This document shows positions 11,031 to 64,000 of a stretch of DNA of 64,000 nt, piece after piece. The DNA lies in NCBI GenBank assembly GCA_964016885.1, contig OZ024743.1:3100001-3164000 (forward strand), read 5' to 3'. Under the pieces are notes generated by a model. It had not been told where the DNA came from and made no database searches. It saw nothing but the letters and a program-made list of their open reading frames with translations. The translations under genes were made by a program, and so were the position numbers. This stretch comes from Eledone cirrhosa (taxonomy: Eukaryota). Positions within the stretch are counted from its first letter, which is position 1. Each line of letters starts with the position of its first letter.

Positions 11031-11134
11031 GAATTCCTCCCCCCTCCCCCTTTTCCTTCTTTTATCACTTTTGTTCATGAATTTATATTATTGCGTTATT
11101 ATACACGGTTTAGACATATTTGTCCTTCATTATA

Positions 11135-11790
11135 CGGTGTATTGGCAGTATCGGTAGAGGGTCAGACGCCATGCTTTGCAGCAAAGAGTTACGGCCCTTT
11201 ATGGTCTGAGTTCAAATCCCGTCGAGGTTAACTTTGCCTTTCATCCCTACGGGGTCGATAAAATAAAGTACCAGTAATACACTAGGATAATTGCTGGCCT
11301 TGTGCCAAAAGTAGAAACAATTATACAACCTTAATAAAATGAATATATTTGGAAGGTAACAATGAAAACAACGACACTTAACAAATAATTGTTTCTACTT
11401 TAGGCACAAGGCCAGCAATCACCCAGTGCATTACTGGTACTTTATTTTATCGACCCCGTAAGGATGAAAGGCAAAGTCAACCTCGGCGGGATTTGAACTC
11501 AGATCGTTAAGGAACGTAACTATGTTGGAAAGCATGGCGTCCGACCCTCTACCGATACTGCCAAACACATAATGCTCGGTTAGCATACTCATGAGAATTT
11601 CAAAACACACCATCTAAACATAATTGTTTCTACTTTAGGCACAAGGTGCATTACTGGTACTTTATTTTATCGACCCCGTAAGGATGAAAGGCAAAGTCAA
11701 CCTTGGTGGGATTTGAACTCAGATCGTAAAGGGACGTAACTATGCTGGAAAGCATGGCGTCCGACCTTCTACCGATACTGCCAATCCAAT
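11135..11790. mobile_element. Cluster of three Meta-domain-like tRNA SINEs (11135-11320 +, 11385-11545 -, 11620-11790 -)
   Basis: GAGTTCAAATCCCGTCGAGGTTAACTTTGCCTTTCATCC..GGGGTCGATAAAATAAAGTACCAG and two reverse copies. Confidence 0.8.
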
Positions 11791-12809: not shown

Positions 12810-12843
12810 TGCTTGATTATAATGTTGATCATGTTATTCTTCA

Positions 12844-12879
<36 letters not shown>

Positions 12880-12913
12880 TGAAGAATAACATGATCAACA
12901 TTATAATAAAGCA
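12810..12913. repeat. Palindrome centred on a (TA)n tract
   Basis: TTATAATGTTGATCATGTTATTCTTCACTTTTA mirrored by TAAAAGTGAAGAATAACATGATCAACATTATAA. Confidence 0.85.
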
Positions 12914-13037: not shown

Positions 13038-13282
13038 TAGTTATGTAATAAACAACATAAGATAATTATTCCATTTACCAGTGGTTTCTTGAAGGCAGAT
13101 ATTTATATCTGTCTTCAGTCTTCAAAATGAATATATATATATATATGTGTGTGTAATTATAAATAAAATACTGGAGAGAACAACAATAATCATTTATGAA
13201 TACATATATTTTTAATAGCTGACAATTTGTTTCAAACACTAAATCCTTGATATGCAAAATCGGTATTAGTACGAGATAAATG

Positions 13283-13979
13283 GGCGATATCCAATTTTAG
13301 TGGACTAAATGCCGTTTAGTTGCTGCTTACTTCAATGTATGAGGCTATTCCAACAAATTTACATTCCCTTTTTTTTAGCCGTTAAAAGAAATATAGATTT
13401 ATTTATTGTTTTTTTTTTTTGCGATTTATTTGCCACTGGGGCATAGATTTCTTTATTTGCCACGTTTTTGTTTGTTTTTTTTGCGATTTATTTGCCACTA
13501 GAGCATTAGGCGGGTAGCGAAAGTAGCAATAATGGCCCGTGTAAGTGGGCCATCTCTCTATATAGGCTTGTACAGGTAAGAGAAGGGAGCACCCCCCTCT
13601 CTCTGTGCTCCCTGGCAGAAAGGTCGCACACTTTCTACGGGGGTGTGTGTGACCCCAAAAAGCTGCCTCTCTATTGAGGACTTAATTTTTTATATTCCTT
13701 TTTAATCACTCGTTAAATGTTTGTACTTGATTTTTGTAAAAAATTCCCCCGCCTAATGCTCTAGTGGCAAATAAATCGCAAAAAAAAAAACAAACAAACA
13801 AAAACGTGGCAAATAAAGAAATCTATGCCCCAGTGGCAAATAAATCGAAAAAAAAAAACAATAAATAAATCTATATTTCTTTTAACGGCTAAAAAAAAGG
13901 GAATGTTGTTGGAATAGCCTCATACATTGAAGTAAGCAGCAACTAAGGGGCATTTAGTCCACTAAAATTGGATATCGCC
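13283..13979. mobile_element. Foldback MITE with ~230-bp TIRs and 8-bp TSD (Merlin-like termini)
   Basis: GATAAATG-GGCGATATCCAATTTTAGTGG ... CCACTAAAATTGGATATCGCC-GATAAATG. Confidence 0.9.
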
Positions 13980-14309
13980 GATAAATGTATTATTTAGTGT
14001 TCTCATCAGAGCGGAAAGAAAAAATTTATAACAAAAATCAAAACAGATCACCGAAGTGATAGACCTACAGTAAAGATGGAATCTTGATATTAAAAAGGTA
14101 CAAGTTATAAACCGTTAGAACCGCCACTTTTTGCTCTGCTTATAATAACTTTGCTACACTTCTTTCCATTTTCTCGCTTGGTTTGCTAGCCTAAGCAATC
14201 TATACGCATCGAGCACACTAACCTTTTCTCTACTGGCCCGTAATCTGCATAACTAATCACCTTTCCTCCTCTTGATTGGTTTGCTAGCTTTTTATTTTGG
14301 GGAGTCGGG

Positions 14310-23160: not shown

Positions 23161-23600
23161 ATTAGGATTGGTGCTCTGAAATAGCGATATATACATGAAT
23201 GTATGTATAGTATATCTGGCGATATACTGTATGTTTAATTAAAAACATTTTGAAGACCTTGCGCAAAAATTGAAAATTAGGATCGCTATTTCAGAGCACC
23301 AATCCTAATTTTCAATTTTTGCTGGACCGGCAATCGCTCTGTATAATCAGTTCCTGATTATTATTGGAATTCTATAAGAATTCAGCCTCTATAATTTTCA
23401 ACAAAGGTCGGTGAGTGCTAAGCTCTGGTGAACACCAACAGTGTGAAACGGATCTCTCAGCTTATCTCCCTTCCCTTGTTGAAAAAAGAATTAAGTGACA
23501 TAGTCACTACTTTAAAATAATAGCACATGGTCTTCAAAATGTTTTTAATTAAACATACGGTATATTGCCAGATATACTATACATACATTCATATATATAT
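23161..23600 (+). mobile_element. Small non-coding hammerhead-bearing retroelement (retrozyme/Penelope pLTR-like) with inverted 5' piece
   Basis: Flanked by (TA)n; homologous to 63511-64000; contains the hammerhead fold at 23419-23464. Confidence 0.7.
23419..23464 (+). ncRNA. Type I hammerhead ribozyme (slightly degenerate)
   Basis: TAAGCT-CTGGTGA-ACAC caaca GTGT-GAAAC ggatct CTC-AGCTTA: perfect stems I and II, core CUGgUGA/GAAA. Confidence 0.7.
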
Positions 23601-23652
23601 AGTGATGAAACATAAGTCAATTGCATGAACTCATACTCATAATCCTTTATTT

Positions 23653-23688: not shown

Positions 23689-23766
23689 TAGTCAGTTCTT
23701 AGATATGCCAGCTCTGTGTTTATAGTGTTGATGGTATCAGAGCCTTGGACAAATATATATATATAT

Positions 23767-23882
23767 ATAGGAACCAGTAAGACCCCGACAGCTGAGCTCA
23801 AGCCGTTTCGACGGCTAATTCTGGACTGAATTAGCCGTCGAAACGGCTTGAGCTCAGCTGTCGGGGTCTTACTGGTTCCTAT
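23767..23882. repeat. Perfect 55-bp-arm hairpin with 6-nt loop, next to (TA)n
   Basis: ATAGGAACCAGTAAGACCCCG..GCTAATTC tggact GAATTAGC..CGGGGTCTTACTGGTTCCTAT. Confidence 0.95.
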
Positions 23883-27580: not shown

Positions 27581-27742
27581 GTTCACTTCTTACTAATAAA
27601 AACGTATTAGAATTATTGCATGATCTCTCTGATCAACATAATCTTTCTGTTACTATCAGAGAAAGTTCAAAAGGTGCTGCAATAGCTGGATTCACAACAT
27701 TTGTTGGGGGTATCTGCATGGGACCCCCTGGATTTATTTTGG
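27581..27742 (+). CDS. C19orf12: C19orf12/Nazo-like gene copy 1, internal coding exon
   Basis: TTTTAG acceptor, GTAAGT donor; SLLTNKNVLELLHDLSDQHNLSVTIRESSKGAAIAGFTTFVGGICMGPPGFILG resembles the C19orf12 N-terminal half; start-codon exon not located. Confidence 0.9.
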
Positions 27743-28960: not shown

Positions 28961-29750
28961 GTTGTAAGAAGTGAAGGGACCTACCTTTGTGTCTCCATAT
29001 GTCTGGACTGAATCTCCCTGCTTGATGTTCACCTGTTTCTTGTTTGGCAGAAAACAACAAATCTCACACACTCATCCACACCAGTCATTACAAAGGATGT
29101 CCACACTCAATGCTGCCCATCGACTGAGAGAATGACACTCCGCACTTCTGATGTGACGTCACTGGCCCCTCGCTTCTGACAAGAAATTCCCTGCAGATTA
29201 TTTCAGGTTTTGGCTTGGCAGCCTGTCTGATGAAGGAGCCCTGTGAGGTGGGGTGGCCGGCCATTGTCTGTGGAAATATCTTTGCCATTTTGTTTGTTCG
29301 GCGCAGCCGAAACACCACTTTGACCTAGGAATAGTGTCTATCACCGTCTCCCCTTCCCCCTTTCTTTCCTCCTTTGTCTAATAGTCTTTGCTCTTCCTCT
29401 CCATTCCCTCTCATTTATGGCATTTATAGTTCTTTCCAATATTGCTTTCTTTTTCTGTATGTTTGACCAATTTGTAGTTATATCAACAATAAACGTACAG
29501 AAAATGTTTTTTTTAAATATCTAGACAATACTGGAATTATCCGCACAAAGGAAAACTCTTAAGTTTTATCCTGTCTTTTCAGACTCTAATTATAATTTTA
29601 TTCTCTATTTTGTCTTGATTATTAAATCATAAGAAATGTTCAAATGAATTGACAATATAGTTTTGAAGTTTTGCCATAACATGACAATATTTGATCAAGA
29701 AATTTTATCAAATAATTGAAATTATTTATTGTTTTTTTTTTCTGTTTTAG

Positions 29751-30007
29751 GTGGTGCACTTGGTGGTTTAGCAGCATATGCAAGTTCTAATAACTTTAAA
29801 CCTGTTTCACAAGTCATTTATGAAATGCCTGAAGGAAAGAAACACTTATTATGTAAAAAGGTTAAAGAAATATTGGTAGCTACAGCAATTCCGTATTCTG
29901 TTACCCTCTCATCTTATGTCACAGCTAATCCAGAAATCGCTAACACAATTCTAAACATTTTGAAAGAATTTATTACCACAGAACTTGGTATGTTTTTAAA
30001 AAATTAA
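29751..30007 (+). CDS. C19orf12: C19orf12/Nazo-like gene copy 1, last coding exon
   Basis: Strong acceptor, phase 1 matches the previous exon; GALGGLAAYASSNNFKPVSQVIYEMP...LKEFITTELGMFLKN* resembles [33 protein letters not shown] of human C19orf12 (recalled sequence). Confidence 0.92.
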
Positions 30008-39368: not shown

Positions 39369-39956
39369 CCCCAAAAATATATACACACTTCAACAGCATT
39401 CTAATAACTATTGCCTGTACAGGTAATCAAAGTGTCAATCGAATGTTAGTTTCGTGTTTTAACAGTACAAATTTACAATACACACATAAAACCAGTGTAT
39501 ATACATACATGAGTGTGTATACACATACATGAATGTGTATATACAATATATATGTATATATATATAGACACATATATTCACGGTGCAACGGAACATTAAA
39601 ATATAGATGCGGGGGGGGGGGGGGGGTTGTATATATAGGGGCGCTGGGGATAAAGGAGTGTAAAGCGTGTGTAATTGATATATTGAAGGAGAGGAGCGTG
39701 CAGCGATAGAATAACAAATATATAGAGAGGGGGAGAGATGGTATTGAAGGGGAGGAGTGCAAAGCGAAAGAGTAAGAGAGATATATATAGAGACGGAACA
39801 GATAGAGAGAAACAGGCGTAAGTAACAGTGGAAGAGATATAGAGAGAGGGGGTAATAAATAAATGGAAATATAAGTGTAACAGTATAAGAGATATATAGA
39901 GAGGGGGAAAGTGTCAACGTAATGTTAGATACATCGTGACATACCTAGAAGTTTCA

Positions 39957-40046
<90 letters not shown>

Positions 40047-40820
40047 TGCTAGTTAAGAATTTCACATTTGTTATCAGTCAAAATTATATTGTCCCAAAAC
40101 TGAATAAATTATTTTATTTTATATATATACTGTGGCACCTCGGTTTACGAGTTTAATTCGTTCCGGCGCGGGGCTCGTAAACCGAAACACGTTTAAAGTC
40201 AGTTTTCACAGCTACACTATATATTTAAACATATATACAGTGATACCTCGCTACTTGGCGGTTCAACTATCGCGGATTCACCAAAAATATATACACACTT
40301 CAACAGCATTCTAATAACTATTGCCTGTACAGGTAATCAAAGTGTCAATCGAATGTTAGTTTCGTGTTTTAACAGTACAAATTTACAATACACACATAAA
40401 ACCAGTGTATATACATACATGAGTGTGTATACACATACATGAATGTGTATATACAATATATATGTATATATATATAGACACATATATTCACGGTGCAACG
40501 GAACATTAAAATATAGATGCGGGGGGGGGGGGGTTGTATATATAGGAGCGCTGGGGATAAAGGAGTGTAAAGCGTGTGTAATTGATATATTGAAGGAGAG
40601 GAGCGTGCAGCGATAGAGTAACAAATATATAGAGAGGGGGAGAGATGGTATTGAAGGGGAGGAGTGCAAAGCGAAAGAGTAAGAGAGATATATATAGAGA
40701 CGGAACAGATAGAGAGAAACAGGCGTAAGTAACAGTGGAAGAGATATAAAGAGAGGGGGTAATAAATAAATGGAAATGTAAGTGTAACAGTATAAGAGAT
40801 ATATAGAGAGGGGGAAATGT
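39369..40820 (+). repeat. ~550-bp direct duplication (39369-39915 and 40280-40820)
   Basis: Near-identical blocks starting CCAAAAATATATACACACTTCAACAGC. Confidence 0.9.
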
Positions 40821-40881
40821 GTTATTGAAGGGGAGGAGTGTAAAGCGAAAGCGTAAGATATATATATAGAGAGGGGGAATA

Positions 40882-44683: not shown

Positions 44684-45633
44684 TGGGCACTACAACGCTA
44701 TTAGCTATCAGTCGAAAGCAGCCGATGAAAGCAAAACATCGTTTATTTCCGTATTACTACCAAGTGGAGTTACTTAAATGAAAATTTTATTTTTTCACGA
44801 ATTTTATTTTTTTTCTATTTTTTATTAATGCATATAGATGTAAGTGAAGTTACTTAAATGAAAATATAGGTGGCCCTTAAAAGGGTCAAATTAGAAAACA
44901 AATTTAAGTTAATTAGAAAACAAGTCATGGTTATCAAATAAATTGGATTTAATCATTTATATTTTCATAGTCATGGTTATCAATGTAGAAAACAAGTCAT
45001 TTTCACCAACAGTGGAGTTAATTTAAATGAAAATATAGGTGGCCCTTAAAAGGGCCAAATTAGAAAACAAATTTATGGTTATCAAATTTTTTTCACCAAC
45101 CTTATTCAAGAAATGTTTAGAAAACAAATTTTTTTCACCAACCTTATTCAAAAGCATGGATACAGTCCACATGGAGACAAGAGACAGTCCCCATGGAGAC
45201 AAGAGACAGTTCCATGGAGATTGATGGTATCTGCTGTAGTAGCGGTAGCGATGGAAAGATCGCGATGGTTAATTCCATTAACAATTTGGCCCTTTTAAGG
45301 GCCACCTATATTTTCATTTAAGTTAACTCCACTGTTGGTGAAAATGACTTGTTTTCTACATTGATAACCATGACTATGAAAATATAAATGATTAAATCCA
45401 ATTTATTTGATAACCACGACTTGTTTTCTAATTTGGCCCTTTTAAGGGCCACCTATATTTTCATTTAAGTAACTTCACTTACATCTATATGCTTTAATAA
45501 AAAAAAAAAATAAATAAAAAACGCGTGAAAACTCCACTTACGCGTGGTGGTAGTAATACGGAAATAAACGATGACGAATGACGTCACCTTCGCCTGCTTT
45601 CACGACTGACAGCTCATGGCGTTGTAGTGCCCA
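44684..45633. mobile_element. Foldback DNA element with long inverted arms, possible 4-bp TSD CTTT
   Basis: TGGGCACTACAACG ... CGTTGTAGTGCCCA; inner arms ~44820-45060 vs 45283-45500; central GAGACAGTCCCCATGGAGACAA repeats. Confidence 0.8.
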
Positions 45634-48401: not shown

Positions 48402-49488
48402 GATTAAATAGAAATACATTCATATAATCAATTAATTATTGCTAGGAACCTTATAAATGTAAACGAAATAGCGTCCTATAAGTTGTCTTTTTCTTCTTTT
48501 CTCTTGGAAATTAAGAATACTCCAGCGCCCGTTGTTGTAGCGTATGGTTGAGCGTGCGTGTCTTTCTCTCTTTATATCTCTTATTTTATACTATTTTTGT
48601 ATAAATCTGGTGTCAGTACCGATGACCCATCCAACCCTTGCTGGCATGGAGAACGGACGGTAAATTATGACGACGACGATGATGATAATAATGACGACAA
48701 CGATGATGATGATGATAATAATAATTATGATGATGACTGTAACAAAATATCCTTTGGAAGTTGTTGGTTCATTGGATACAGAAGGACATTTCCAGGAGGA
48801 TTGAGTAAGGAGTAGATTCGGTGCCAGATTTACCATTGTGCTTAGGTGTGCTTAAGTATAGGGCCCCTATAACGGCGGCGAAGATTCGAAACCGAATCTG
48901 AGCTTTCCCGCCTCTGGGACAAGCCGTGGTAACTTGTTTACGCTCAAGAGACTAACCCCTTGAGAGAGGCTAAACACAGGTCAGAGGTGTTTACTCCTGA
49001 CAGAAAATAGGTCAGAGGATATATCCATCTTCCTGACTTGTTTACGCTTGGCAAACTAATCCCTTGGGAGACTAACTAAAGTTCAGAGGATATATCTATC
49101 CTTCTAACTTCAACTCTTATAAATACAGGGGTTGTTTACGCCTCGACAGAAAAGAAGTGATATACAGACAAGTCGCATTTACAAGCTCTCGTCACGAAAA
49201 ACCAGTCTGCCACTTATTCTCACCTTCCTGGCTGATCGCTGACTCCTGCAATACAAACAAGTAAATATACTGATACGCCGCACACGCATTCATAGTGAGT
49301 TCAGTATTTATACACGCACCATTTCTGTTTACACATATTGTACCTTTCTGATACAGTACAAATTACATCGAAACCACCATACCAACAGTTACATCCATCC
49401 ATCCACTTATCGTTACAACATAATATTCCGTTACAACTGGTGACCCCGTAAAACAGACACACAACCTTCTGATCATCCACTACAAACG

Positions 49489-50538
49489 ATGTCTCTAGCA
49501 CACGACGATTCATCTATGGCAGAAATGGCAGTCAGGGCGGCATTTACATTAAGGATTCCACCATTCTGGGTGCACGATCCAACACTGTGGTTCGCGCACA
49601 TCGAAGCGCAGTTCGCATCGAACCGGATCTTTATGGAGGCATCCCGTCTCACACATGTCATCGGTTCGATGTCTCCGGAGATTATGAATGAGGTTCGAGA
49701 CCTCATTTTAGCACCACTCGGCTCTGTGTCATATGACACATTTAAAAGAACATTAGTTAAGCGGACGTCGGAGTCACAGCAGAAGCGTTTACACCAGCTC
49801 CTCATATCGGATGAATTAGGAGATAAAAAGCCGACGCAACTCCTACGGCGAATGAAGCAGCTCCTGGGAGAACATAAACTCCCGGATGAAATTTTCAAGT
49901 AACTCCTCCTCCAGCGTTTACTTTCTGTCACACAAGTTGTACTAGCATCCACCAGGGAGTCCACCACCATAGAAGAACTCGCCGAGCTGGCAGATAAAAT
50001 CATGGAGGTACCACATCCGCACTCAAAAATAGCGAATGTGACGCCAGCCGTGCCTTCCACCAATCCTTTCCTTCAGCCCTCCAGTGCCACAGAGATGCCC
50101 GATCTACACCAGTTACTGGCACAGCAAGCAACACAGATACAGGCCTTGATGCAACAAATTCAGGCCTTGTCACTGGGCAACCCTGCCACGCGTCGGTCCA
50201 ACAGTCGAACTCGCCGATTTGGTGGTCGCTCAAGAAGTCCGAGCGCATCTCGGGATTCACCAGAAATGTGTTGGTACCACCAACGATTCGAGAGACGAGC
50301 GCAAAAGTGCAGCCATCCCTGTTCATTTGTTTCGAAAACGAATCAGGGAAACGACACAGCCAGAAACTCAATGCGATGGACGTTTCTGGCCCTCATAACC
50401 AAAGTCGCCTATTTTTCATTCAGGATCGCGTCACAGGCACGCGTTTCCTGGTTGACACCGGTGCCGAAGTCAGCATCATCCCGGTTTCCTGCGTTCCTGG
50501 AAAAAGGAGAGAGACACCAGCCTGGCTCCAGGCGGTGA
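49489..50538 (+). pseudogene. gag: Gypsy gag with premature TAA at 49900
   Basis: IPPFWVHDPTLWFAHIEAQF, LGDKKPTQLLRRMKQL, CWYHQRF..A.KC..PC knuckle in one frame. Confidence 0.9.
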
Positions 50539-53492
50539 ATCACTCACATATTCCGACCTACGGAGAACAGTCCCTGACACTAAATTTGGGACTACGCCGC
50601 ACTTTCCAGTGGGTATTCGTTGTGGCTAAGCTGCCGACCCCTATTTTAAGAGCTGACTTTCTTTAGCACTTCTCGCTGCTAGTGGATCTGAAAAACCAAC
50701 GTCTCGTTGACAACTCCACTGGTCTCACTGTGCGCGGCATAGCCGCTAGGACAGCCACAGTCAGTCCAGTCATTTCACGATCGACAACAACAACCCGGCA
50801 CAACCACATCATCAACAAATACCCAGACGTAGCTCGACCACTATTCAATGCTTGGCCTGTAAAGCATGACGTCACACACCACATAAAAACACACGGCCCA
50901 CCTGTCGCTGCACGACCTAGAAGGCTACCACCAGACCGGCTGAAGTCCGTCAAACAAGAATTTCAGCACATGCTGGATCTCGGCATCATACGTCCGTCCA
51001 GCAGCAACTGGTCCTCACCCATACACTGTGTACCCAAGAAGTCGTCGAACGACTGGCGAATCTGTGGCGACTACCGTGCACTGAACAACTGCACCGTTCC
51101 TGATTCTTATCCAGTGCCTCATCTACAGGACTTCTCTAGCTCGCTGCACGGGGCTCGCATATTTTCGAAGATCGATCTTGTGCGAGCTTACAATCAGATA
51201 CCCGTTGAGCCAGCAGAGATTCCAAAGAGCGCAGTCACAACACCCTTTGGAATGTTCGAATTTCTGCGTATGCCTTTCGGTTTGCGAAATGCAGCGCAGA
51301 CATTCCAGCGATTCATCGATACAGTCACCAGAGGTCTACCTTTTGTATACGCATACATTGACGACTTACTGGTGGCCAGCAGCTCCGATGAAGGACATGA
51401 GAAACACCTGGATCCCCTATTCACACGTTTGCGTGAATACGGAATTGTTATCAACCCCAGCAAATGTGAGTTCGGAGTTGCGTCCCTTCATTTTCTGGGA
51501 CACATCATTGACAAAGATGGTATTCGCCCACTTAAGGAGAAAGTCAAATCCATCATTGATTTTCCACAACCTATATCTCTCCGCAAACTGCGAGAATTTC
51601 TTGGCCTGGTAAACTTCTACAGAAGATTTATACCCCACTGTGCAGAGACAGCCCAACCACTCACAGATTTGCTGCGGCAGCGTACAACCAAAAACGCAAA
51701 CATCAAGCTCAGCGAAAAAGAATGTACCGCTTTCGCTGAGTTGAAGAAAATGTTGTCCGAGGCTACAATGCTGAGTTACCCCAAACCTGACGCCCCAATG
51801 TGTTTATTGACTGATGCATCCGATTTCGGTGTTGGATGTGTGCTTCAACAACTCTCTGGCGATATTTGGCGACCTGTATCTTTTTTCTCTAAGCGATTAA
51901 AACCCACCGAAACTAAGTACAGCACATTCAGTCGTGAATTATTGGCAGCATACCTTGCTGTCAAGCATTTTCGACACATGCTAGAAGGTCGTGTGTTCTC
52001 TATATACACCGACCACAAACCACTACTGTACGCGTTCAACGCCAAGCCTGACCGACACTCACCCAGGGAGGTCCGACATCTGGACTTGATTTCTCAGTAC
52101 ACTACTGATATTCGGTACATTAAGGGTGCTACCAACTCAGCAGCTGATGCCCTATCGCACAGGGAGCTTAACGCAATCCACACCACTGCCACTATCAACC
52201 TCCAGAGGATTGCAGCGGATCAACAGAACGACGAGGAACTGCTGCAACTCCGGAAATCATCCTTGAAATTGAAGGAATGCCCGCTGCCCTCTTCTTCGGG
52301 TTATATTTGGTGCGACATCTCCACAGGCTGCGAGCACCCATACGGGCCCCGGAAACATCGACGCAACGTTTTCTCGGCACTGCATTCTCTGGCACATCCT
52401 GCCGTCCTCGCCACGCAGAAACTGATGGTTGCCCGCTTTGTGTGGCCCAACATCAACAAGGACACCCGCGAATGGGCTAGGAACTGTATCGCGTGCCAGA
52501 AGGCGAAAATTCACCGGCACATCAACGCCCCGATCGGTTCTTTCGTAACACCTGATGCACGGTTCCAACATGTACATATAGACATAGTTGGACCTTTGCC
52601 TCCTTCTCAAAACTACACTCATCTTCTCACCTGTGTCGACCAATTTTCTCGCTGGCCAGAAGCTTTTACCCTGGCAGATATTACTGCGGAAACTGTCGCC
52701 AAAACGCTAGTGTTTCACTGGGTTTCGCGTTTCAGCACACCCGCGACCATCACTACGGATAGAGGACGTCAGTTCGATTCGCACCTATTTACCGAGCGGA
52801 CTCGTCTCCTCGGGTGCAAACACATCCGTACAACAGCGTATCACCCTGCCGCTAACGGCATGGTAGAACGCTTCTACCGCCAGCTAAAAGCATCTATCAA
52901 GGCTTACGAAGACTCCACTAACTGGTTCGAATACCTCCCACTCATTCTTCTTGGTATTCGTTCCACTGTTAAGGAGGGAGTCGGACATTCTCCGGCTGAA
53001 ATGTTGTATGGCACCGTACTCACTCTACCCGGACAAATGATCGCTCCTGTTTCGCCACAAGAACTTCCAGACCCTACAAAATATGTGCACCGTTTACCGT
53101 CATCGATGTCGCATCTATCTCCTTCAGCCCCTAAACAACAGCACATTACTTCACACATACCAAAAGACATCGATACATGAACGCATGTTTTCGTTAGAAA
53201 TGACGGTATTCCATCGCAACTTCTTCCGCCGTATTCCGGGCCCTATAAGGTGATACAGAAACGCCCTAAGTATTTCGTCCTCGACTTGAACGGGAAACGA
53301 AATACTGTCTCCATTGATCGTTTAAAAAAAGCGTTCATAGAACAGGAATTGCCACCAGTACCCACCGTTTCTCCAGCAGACTACCAACAACTTTGCCCGA
53401 CACAAACACGACAAATTCTGCACAACCCCGACACACCAAATCTGGAAGAACAGTCCGATGGCCCACGCGATACGTACAAGTTTATTGGGTAA
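50343..53492 (+). pseudogene. pol: Gypsy pol (protease-RT-RNase H-integrase), in-frame stops at 50664 and 53178
   Basis: [52 protein letters not shown]. Confidence 0.95.
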
Positions 53493-54592
53493 GTACAAAT
53501 TATGCATCCGGTCGACATTTCGGCTAATTTGTACATTTCAACGAATCGGCCAATTTCTGTGGTCATGAACTATTGCTACACACAAATCAATTAACTCTGT
53601 GCATCACCCACATCAAAAGAACAGACAAAAGAACATTTTTCCGTTTCTATGAAATGAACGAACTTTTAATCAACAAACTTTTCGTACGAACATTTTCAAT
53701 TTTATCTAACAACACAGTACATTTTCCTGCATGTAAATTTCTTTTGCTTTGCATGTTTTCTTTCATTTCTCCTGTTTGTAAATGACTTTCATGTGTTTTT
53801 TTTATTTTTACTGATTTTCTTCAACAACACACCTAGTCATACCTATCTTCATTTCACATGCACCTAGATCGTTCAATCTTAGCTTTCTCACTGGAATGGG
53901 GGTACTATAACGGCGGCGAAGATTCGAAACCGAATCTGAGCTTTCCCGCCTCTGGGACAAGCCGTGGTAACTTGTTTACGCTCAAGAGACTAACCCCTTG
54001 GGAGAGGCTAAACACAGGTCAGAGGTGTTTACGCCTGACAGAAAATAGGTCAGAGGATATATCCATCTTTCTGACTTGTTTACGCTTGGCAAACTAATCC
54101 CTTGGGAGACTAACCAAAGTTCAGAGGATATATCTATCCTTCTAACTTCAACTCTTATAAATACAGGGGTTGTTTACGCCTCGACAGAAAAGAAGTGATA
54201 TACAGACAAGACAAGTCGCATTTACAAGCTCTCGTCACGAAAGCCAGTCTGCCACTTATTCTCACCTTCCTGGCTGATCGCTGACTCCTGCAATACAAAT
54301 AAGTAAATATACTGATACGCACACGCATTCATAGTGAGTTCAGTATTTATACACGCACCATTTCTGTTTATACATGTTGTACCTTTCTGATATAGTACAA
54401 ATTATATTATAATCGTATTCTGTGATACTTGAATTTATTGTATGAATATTTTGTGTTATTGATTTTATCATTCAATATTCAAATTGAATATTGTTATAAT
54501 AAAATAAACTTTGTAACAACACAATCCTGGTATTTTTCTTTACATCGAAACCACCATACCAACAGTTACATCCATCCATCCAGGACGGGGTT

Positions 54593-57330: not shown

Positions 57331-57492
57331 CGAAGAAAACATCTATAAACCAAATATTAGATAGTGTTTCTCTGGTATCTAAACACGAAAAAATAACTGT
57401 TATAAAAGGAACAACACTCAGAGGAGTCTTATATATTGTAATCGCAACATTAACTGGAGGTTATATTTATGGGCCAATTGGTTTAATTATTG
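57331..57492 (+). CDS. C19orf12/Nazo-like gene copy 2, internal coding exon (divergent)
   Basis: TTTCAG acceptor, GTAAGTTCTA donor, same 162-nt length and phases as 27581-27742; KKTSINQILDSVSLVSKHEKITVIKGTTLRGVLYIVIATLTGGYIYGPIGLIIG. Confidence 0.8.
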
Positions 57493-63474: not shown

Positions 63475-63510
<36 letters not shown>

Positions 63511-63516
<6 letters not shown>

Positions 63517-64000
63517 TTGGTGCTCTGAAAAAGCTATATATATATGAATGTATATATAGTGTATTTTGCAATACACTGTATGCTTAATTAAAAGCATTTC
63601 GAAAACCGTATGCTATTGTTTTAGAGTAGTGACAGACTCACTTACTTTAATTTCAGCAAGCAGGGGGAGATAAAGCTGACAAGGCCTTGTTTCGCATTTA
63701 TTGATGCTTATCAAAGCCAACTACTCCTCCTGTCTGCTGAAATCATGGATGTTTGGTTCTTATAGAATTCTATAAGAACCAAACATCCACGAATTCAGCA
63801 GACAGGAGGAGTAGTTGGCTTTGATAAGCATCAATAAATGCGAAACAAGGCCTTGTCAGCTTTATCTCCCCCTGCTTGCTGAAATTAAAGTAAGTGAGTC
63901 TGTCACTACTCTAAAACAATAGCATACGGTTTTCGAAATGCTTTTAATTAAGCATACAGTGTATTGCAAAATACACTATATATACATATATATATATGTG
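63511..64000. mobile_element. Spacer-less ~460-bp palindrome of the hammerhead element family
   Basis: Axis at 63767/63768 in TATAGAATTCTATA; arms near identical; homologous to 23161-23600. Confidence 0.9.
63817..63861 (+). ncRNA. Type I hammerhead fold with degenerate core (mirror copy 63674-63718 on minus)
   Basis: GGCT-TTGATAA-GCAT caataa ATGC-GAAAC-AAGGCCTT-GTC-AGCT. Confidence 0.6.

Follow-up and report, generated by a model that had tools for sequence, protein, structure and literature searches.

The near-perfect palindrome at 63.5-64 kb of the window (the whole 64,000-nt stretch of Eledone cirrhosa DNA analysed here) is, by sequence comparison, one insertion of a non-LTR retrozyme family built on a hammerhead-bearing repeat of about 320 bp, and it is the symmetric extreme of the insertion pattern that is common in that family. 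By analogy, the inverted arms, the one-sided tail and the (TA)n target point to Penelope-like elements (PLEs), of which they are hallmarks. The identity of the locus as a Penelope-type retrozyme insertion is highly probable, and is far better supported than either of the priming models that could account for its shape. As to mechanism we favour, with a probability of roughly 0.55, a Penelope-like reverse transcriptase (RT)-endonuclease that used the two ends of the cut as primers, at two adjoining sites of a single RNA, circular or multimeric.

Anatomy of the palindrome

The arms (63538-63767 and 63768-63997; 230 nt each) are 98% complementary and 0 nt apart, and the axis at 63767/68 lies inside GAATTC, itself within a self-complementary 10-mer (63763-63772), confirming the spacer-less, near-perfect palindrome reported in the preliminary description. 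Two mismatches are internal (63742/63793 and 63745/63790), and further differences fall in the outer TA tract. Each strand carries one type I hammerhead-like motif with core TTGATAA, stem II GCAT/ATGC and stem III C-AAGGCCTT-G. The left arm has an extra 24-25 nt (63511-63534) that is unpartnered on the right arm, which continues past the window end into (TA)n. The exact 36-bp fold-back junction occurs once genome-wide, and no reuse of the axis was found elsewhere in the genome.

63483..63510, unstranded: (TA)n microsatellite, left target flank, from sequence; a TA-rich flank is common in the family
63511..63534, minus: tail, monomer positions ~144-168, left arm only (self-comparison and genome-wide tail junctions)
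63535..63767, minus: left arm, monomer 226-320 then 1-143, reading leftwards (inverted-repeat and family comparison)
63652..63739, minus: putative left-arm type I hammerhead, mirroring 63796-63883; minus-strand core 63708-63714
63763..63772, unstranded: 10-bp palindromic word common to both arms, junction microhomology and axis
63768..63997, plus: right arm, monomer 226-320 then 1-~143, stopping in the internal TA tract, no tail
63796..63883, plus: putative right-arm type I hammerhead with long stem I and U3-A8 core at 63821-63827 (motif, covariation, folding)
63828-63841, 63842-63845 and 63846-63855, plus: stem II, GAAA and palindromic stem III of the right-arm hammerhead
after 63857, plus: predicted cut of the right-arm hammerhead

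A dispersed and tandem retrozyme family

With a single palindrome arm as query, the genome search gives 2,052 candidates, of which the best match at 96-97%; a 27-mer of the family has 506 exact genome matches and a degenerate ribozyme pattern 2,230. The family monomer, defined from tandem copies, is 320 bp long, non-coding and low in GC, within the 170-400-nt range of retrozymes, and folds with z = -5.1. A type I hammerhead in every tandem unit, as in retrozymes, is found in the family but not at the palindrome locus. We found no long open reading frame in the monomer or the palindrome locus, so neither provides the RT and GIY-YIG endonuclease of an autonomous PLE. A MITE or foldback DNA transposon does not match the insertions either, since their inner ends are spread across the monomer and their two outer ends differ. 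A microRNA precursor was also considered and rejected: MIR6288 scores 56 against a gathering score of 74 bits, and the match is to the hairpin only.

The array at C14:23.50 Mb (G000:C14:23499000-23508300; L226, L228) contains 27 consecutive intact hammerheads, head to tail at a spacing of 320-321 bp, and belongs to the same subfamily as the palindrome. It lies between a short inverted arm that has no tail and a tail, each in (TA)n, and is a candidate source locus. A loop variant repeats 12 units apart within it, which suggests a later block duplication. A second array (G000:C28:5644000-5653900; L227) consists of a second subfamily in a higher-order repeat of ~2.0 kb.

The related copy at 23 kb is a member of a sister family, for which the genome has 2,456 candidates:

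23161..23260, minus: short inverted arm with tail (L032)
23282..23602, plus: one monomer running to the TA tract, with a decayed C3-G8 hammerhead whose core lies at 23425-23431

Outside the ribozyme it is 79-87% identical to the palindrome, and its motif has core CTGGTGA, stem II ACAC/GTGT and stem III C-GGATCT-C. Because most copies of the sister family instead have stem III CAGATCTG (30 of 36, counted by eye) and core CTGATGA (28 of 36), GGATCT and CTGGTGA are private decay of the 23-kb copy and not family states.

The hammerhead core is a U3-A8 covariant

The TTGATAA core had been read as degenerate and used to date the foldback. It is present in 36 of 39 family-A copies and in 27 of 27 units of the C14 array, and the first 100 of the 2,230 pattern matches, scored by eye, comprise 88 TTGATAA, 9 CTGATGA, 3 TTGATGA and 0 CTGATAA. 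Among 42 aligned copies the 3-8 pair is UA in 34, CG in 7 and UG in 1. U3-A8 is a natural covariant that is active in vitro (PMC3088659), and ~1,300 Schistosoma PLE motifs carry this core (PMC4209133). The sequence comparison thus identifies TTGATAA as the U3-A8 covariant of the C3-G8 pair, already in print, and not as local decay; since it is family-wide and keeps its pairing, it cannot date the foldback.

The selection on RNA structure proposed in the preliminary description, with pairing kept while sequence changes, is supported. Fourteen of 28 pairs change on both sides, which 0 of 500 shuffles reached, although the sequences are kin-related, so that this figure is no probability and reflects few independent, subfamily-level events, and the alignment search pattern fixed part of the core, which bears on the counts. 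Three of the four pairs in stem II show such two-sided changes, as do two within the stem III palindrome. Subfamily variants fall at 0 of 12 core positions and 37 of 249 others, at loci chosen by sequence downstream of the cut; taken alone, this is a weak sign of core constraint.

The motif has the conserved core with its 3-8 pair, stems I-III and an NUH cut site, as in type I hammerheads. Rfam gives no hammerhead family match at E ≤ 1 and only miRNA matches below gathering score, and the ribozyme call therefore rests on motif, covariation and folding. In folding predictions, 4 of 6 subfamily representatives have the active dimer as their free minimum, and all 6 place the active monomer 1.1-8.4 kcal/mol higher than the minimum. 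The monomer from the palindrome copy is predicted to be trapped with its core paired to stem III, at a gap of 7.0 kcal/mol. Cleavage as a dimer through the palindromic stem III, suggested earlier for this locus, is thus predicted as a property of the family. It does not extend to the palindrome itself: its two hammerheads lie on opposite strands, so neither transcript has two sense hammerheads to dimerise. The long double-stranded RNA that had been proposed is predicted here too, with read-through RNA folding into one duplex at -399 kcal/mol.

The 5' ends of the arms do not accumulate at the cut site (5 of 159 ends within 3 nt) and so give no sign of cleavage in vivo; ribozyme activity is a prediction. 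A pile-up seen earlier at the cut site was an artefact of the reference start and disappeared with a longer reference (the same 5 of 159); a cluster of starts near 193-203 probably reflects a variant carried by the reference copy and was set aside.

Inverted insertions pair one tailed with one tailless end

The foldback had been presented as an unusual local event, but inverted, outward-facing arms are found at 64 of 91 loci of family A, to which the palindrome belongs, at 17 of 30 of the sister family (family B) and at 23 of 40 mixed loci (104 of 161 in total); among family-A loci taken in genome order the count is 46 of 63. Ten duplicate-window ids were removed before counting. Arms were accepted at ≥45 nt and ≥86% identity (72% in the family-B/mixed-locus and junction analyses), and three loci of the family-B/mixed set without a filter-passing arm were scored as non-inverted. 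L067, a twin of L026, was left out of the arm-comparison, junction and folding/variant sets and kept in the 91-locus count.

Outer arm ends lie either at monomer ~143, in the internal TA tract, or at ~168, a tail of ~25 nt further on. One UA-tract end is combined with one tail end at 49 family-A, 12 family-B and 18 mixed inverted loci (79 of 104). Like is combined with like at 2, 1 and 1 loci, respectively (4 of 104), and 21 loci are unclassifiable, such that a tail is paired with no tail in 79 of 83 classifiable inverted insertions. Pairs of two 143 ends account for 2 of the 104. TA-rich DNA adjoins the tail end in 61 of 65 cases and the UA-tract end in 54 of 70. There are 1,068 exact tail-to-TA junctions genome-wide, and among the first 100 of these, inspected by eye, none has an opposed tail pair within 2 kb. 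The 27 non-inverted loci, also classified by eye, comprise 13 that end near 143, 9 near 168, 3 with a short inverted tail and 2 ending elsewhere.

The arms of a locus are not nested, the further 5' reach belonging to the tailless arm in 29 of 48 cases, to the tailed arm in 17 and to neither in 2. Arms of the same locus diverge by 3.9%, against 6.5 ± 0.3% when shuffled, and have subfamily variants in common. Microhomology of at least 3 nt is found in 15 of the 27 junctions that are clean enough to score (36 of 63 are not clean), against 6.6% for random joins. Only 2 of these 27 are symmetric, at the palindrome locus and at L064. The latter (G000:C1:11402626) is a second spacer-less palindrome of the family, whose axis is the first four bases past the predicted cut. 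Arms cross the cut site and can exceed one monomer (maximum 1,154 nt), and their inner ends are scattered over the monomer, which fits a circular or uncut multimeric template.

How the inverted ends could form

Priming of both cut ends on one RNA would proceed as follows. The tandem copies, observed as arrays, would be transcribed into multimeric RNA, and the hammerhead, for which folding predicts activity when two copies pair through the palindromic stem III but none in a single copy, would process multimers while leaving circles intact. One DNA end would be primed at the internal UA tract (~143) and the other ~25 nt further on (~168); with two priming sites, one per DNA end, the tail would stand on exactly one arm. 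The two cDNA 3' ends could then anneal at a short complementary word, seen today as junction microhomology. At 63.5-64 kb both cDNAs would have halted at one self-complementary 10-mer, producing the spacer-less palindrome. The resulting locus would be a dead end for the ribozyme, since read-through RNA is predicted to form a duplex of ~230 bp.

This scheme has a biochemical precedent. With the anole PLE enzyme, cutting and extension take place on both strands, and two adjacent internal start sites bound the tail (Frangieh 2024, PMC11167929). The start sites were alike on both strands in vitro in that report, so that the available part of it does not predict the either-or end pattern seen here. 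The hammerhead of the anole element was dispensable for insertion (PMC11167929). We tentatively suggest, at somewhat short of even odds, a more specific version in which an RT dimer primes both (TA)n cut ends, one protomer per start site, on the same circular RNA, with microhomology joining the cDNAs.

A snap-back, in which the same Penelope-like machinery yields a tail-primed cDNA that folds at a self-complementary word, copies itself to the TA tract and joins the other end there, is the main rival and would equally explain a one-ended tail, but we consider it less probable. Central deletions would afterwards erode the perfect palindromes, and the locus at 63.5-64 kb would be one that survived. 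The palindrome locus and L064 are symmetric at self-complementary words, and the former fits a snap-back equally well; its private mismatches, 23 and 26 bp from the axis, may stabilise the palindrome. The deletion that follows a snap-back could likewise un-nest the arms. Long palindromes are prone to deletion. Palindromes at PLE junctions have been interpreted as products of self-priming (Arkhipova 2013, PMC3846280). However, symmetry is confined to two clean junctions of 27, and young loci with near-identical arms are already asymmetric (L007, L010, L012, L070, L097). Moreover, because loci with a single end stop at 143 as well as at 168, 143/143 pairs should be numerous under snap-back; a lone tailless end is seen in 13 of the 27 non-inverted loci, yet the paired form is limited to the two cases noted above.

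Arm-to-arm gene conversion after insertion, allowed for in the preliminary description and by which near identity would be maintained and not inherited, is improbable. Four non-majority bases are common to both palindrome arms, and a variant pair at monomer 70 and 74 co-occurs solely in these arms (2 of 39 matches). Rare variants shared between arms are, however, also present in about ten asymmetric loci, as expected if one RNA templated both arms, and two internal mismatches have been left uncorrected. Conversion leaves the one-sided tail unexplained and could at most be an addition to an insertion mechanism.

A fold-back read or assembly artefact is very improbable: the junction is unique and no spanning read or contig was found in four public DNA runs that contain the family (runs possibly of other individuals or species), but the flanks are unmirrored, the tail is one-sided as at 78 other loci, the arms differ internally, and opposite-strand joints of other copies are present in an independent run, in 6 raw reads with 5 starts; many reads of that run stop at GAATTC as in a restriction library.

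Relation to known retrozymes and PLEs

As far as the available text of the comparison papers goes, the family resembles animal non-LTR retrozymes (Cervera and de la Pena 2020, PMC7229834; Li, Clavereau and Pollet 2026, 10.64898/2026.07.22.740005) in its non-coding monomer of 170-400 nt with one type I hammerhead per unit, in having both dispersed and tandem copies, in low GC, in a ribozyme that favours the dimer and in the co-occurrence of PLEs. Most Eledone family copies differ from them in the U3-A8 core. The available parts of these two sources contain no description of head-to-head copies, a one-sided tail or (TA)n for retrozymes.

These features match EN+ PLEs, in which the portions at hand of three reports (Arkhipova 2013, PMC3846280; Craig 2021, PMC8557442; Frangieh 2024, PMC11167929) describe a head-to-head inverted, 5'-truncated copy, a tail at one end, inverted junctions that are palindromic or overlap, insertion into microsatellites, partial tandem copies, and a hammerhead upstream of two internal 3' ends. 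Unlike those elements the retrozyme has no ORF, and its tail is ~25 nt and not 30-40. According to the available text on the Schistosoma mansoni PLE Cercyon (Cervera and de la Pena 2014, PMC4209133), its hammerheads share the U3-A8 core and palindromic loop 3, and pairs of them lie on opposite strands 100-700 bp apart in Schistosoma. They are minimal with a long stem II, whereas the retrozyme has a 4-bp stem II, an 8-nt stem III palindrome and a long stem I.

Taken by itself, then, the palindrome locus is ordinary, with its U3-A8 core, opposed hammerheads, junction palindrome and one-sided tail all in print for PLEs. Searching titles and the starts of abstracts returned no publication on this retrozyme family. 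The origin of PLE inverted repeats and tails is named as an open question in the part of Craig 2021 (PMC8557442) available to us, and the family constitutes a large natural test of how PLEs form both. Its end pairing and its un-nested arms from a single template lead to a testable model of two-ended priming, and it connects animal retrozymes structurally with PLE enzymes. If the RT-dimer version is true, thousands of retrozyme insertions directly record the Penelope integration reaction, one model covers both the inverted pLTR and the one-sided tail, retrozymes are tied to PLEs by footprint beyond co-occurrence, and about a thousand or more long hairpins in the genome are possible editing or small-RNA substrates.

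Autonomous elements as candidate helpers

The genome contains 10,595 GIY-YIG candidates, of which 30 were examined here. In these 30 loci, 7 further stretches and the upstream flanks of 27 single-arm loci, we found no autonomous element with extended sequence shared with the retrozyme; the 30 loci and 7 stretches yielded nested retrozyme copies and one weak antisense match. The best helper candidate aligns at 63.5 against 74 ± 8 for shuffles, indicating no similarity above shuffles outside the ribozyme.

The element at L235 (G000:C1:145868500-145876500) has an unbroken 938-aa frame with RT and GIY-YIG domains, and U3-A8 hammerheads with core TTGAAAA in both of its 750-bp terminal repeats, which are 99% identical. 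In the related L134-L161 family the TTGATAA core and GCAT/ATGC stem II are present at 13 of the 30 GIY-YIG loci, and the element terminates in TTCA(TA)n, sometimes followed by a tail. A linker motif CxxxxCxxC in the autonomous elements is of the Neptune/Nematis type as described in the available text of PMC8557442. The retrozyme and the autonomous elements of L134-L161 are alike only in core, stem II and TTCA(TA)n end; their tails differ. On this sequence resemblance, autonomous RT and GIY-YIG elements are candidate helpers of the retrozyme.

Two autonomous PLE families are distinguishable (L134-L161 with L236-L265, and L235), both with U3-A8 cores and a palindromic CCGG in stem III. A GIY-YIG match 4 kb from a family copy (L164) proved to be an unrelated neighbour.

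Host gene and other features of the window

27583-27741 and 29744-30004: exons of C19orf12-like copy 1 (Pfam PF20721 on 27583-27741)
57331..57491, plus: predicted exon of C19orf12-like copy 2 (weak match, E 0.18; AG/GT borders)
G000:C4:3180711-3180971, 16.7 kb past the window: predicted last exon of copy 2 (30% identity to the last exon of copy 1, E 4e-10)

The proposed position of the palindrome in an intron of C19orf12-like copy 2 holds as a gene prediction, with a sense-strand intron of ~23 kb. The two C19orf12-like genes are in tandem and diverged, with matching exons 24-30% identical, and a third match lies at G000:C4:51282419.

An LTR retrotransposon occupies 48867-54407, with LTRs (48867-49368 and 53905-54407) that are 96% identical and a frame at 50667-53180 encoding 837 aa of RT-RNase H-integrase. 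Directly after (TA)n, at 23752-23882, stands a near-perfect GC-rich hairpin of ~110 bp that is unrelated to the retrozyme. In the inverted repeat at 44684-45633, three matches to the histone 3' UTR stem-loop exceed the Rfam gathering score; they are probably repeat-borne. The window also contains a tandem duplication of ~545 bp with 98.5% identity (39371-40822) and other short inverted repeats (12819-12904, 11128-11574 and 13280-13982), one of them centred on (TA)n.
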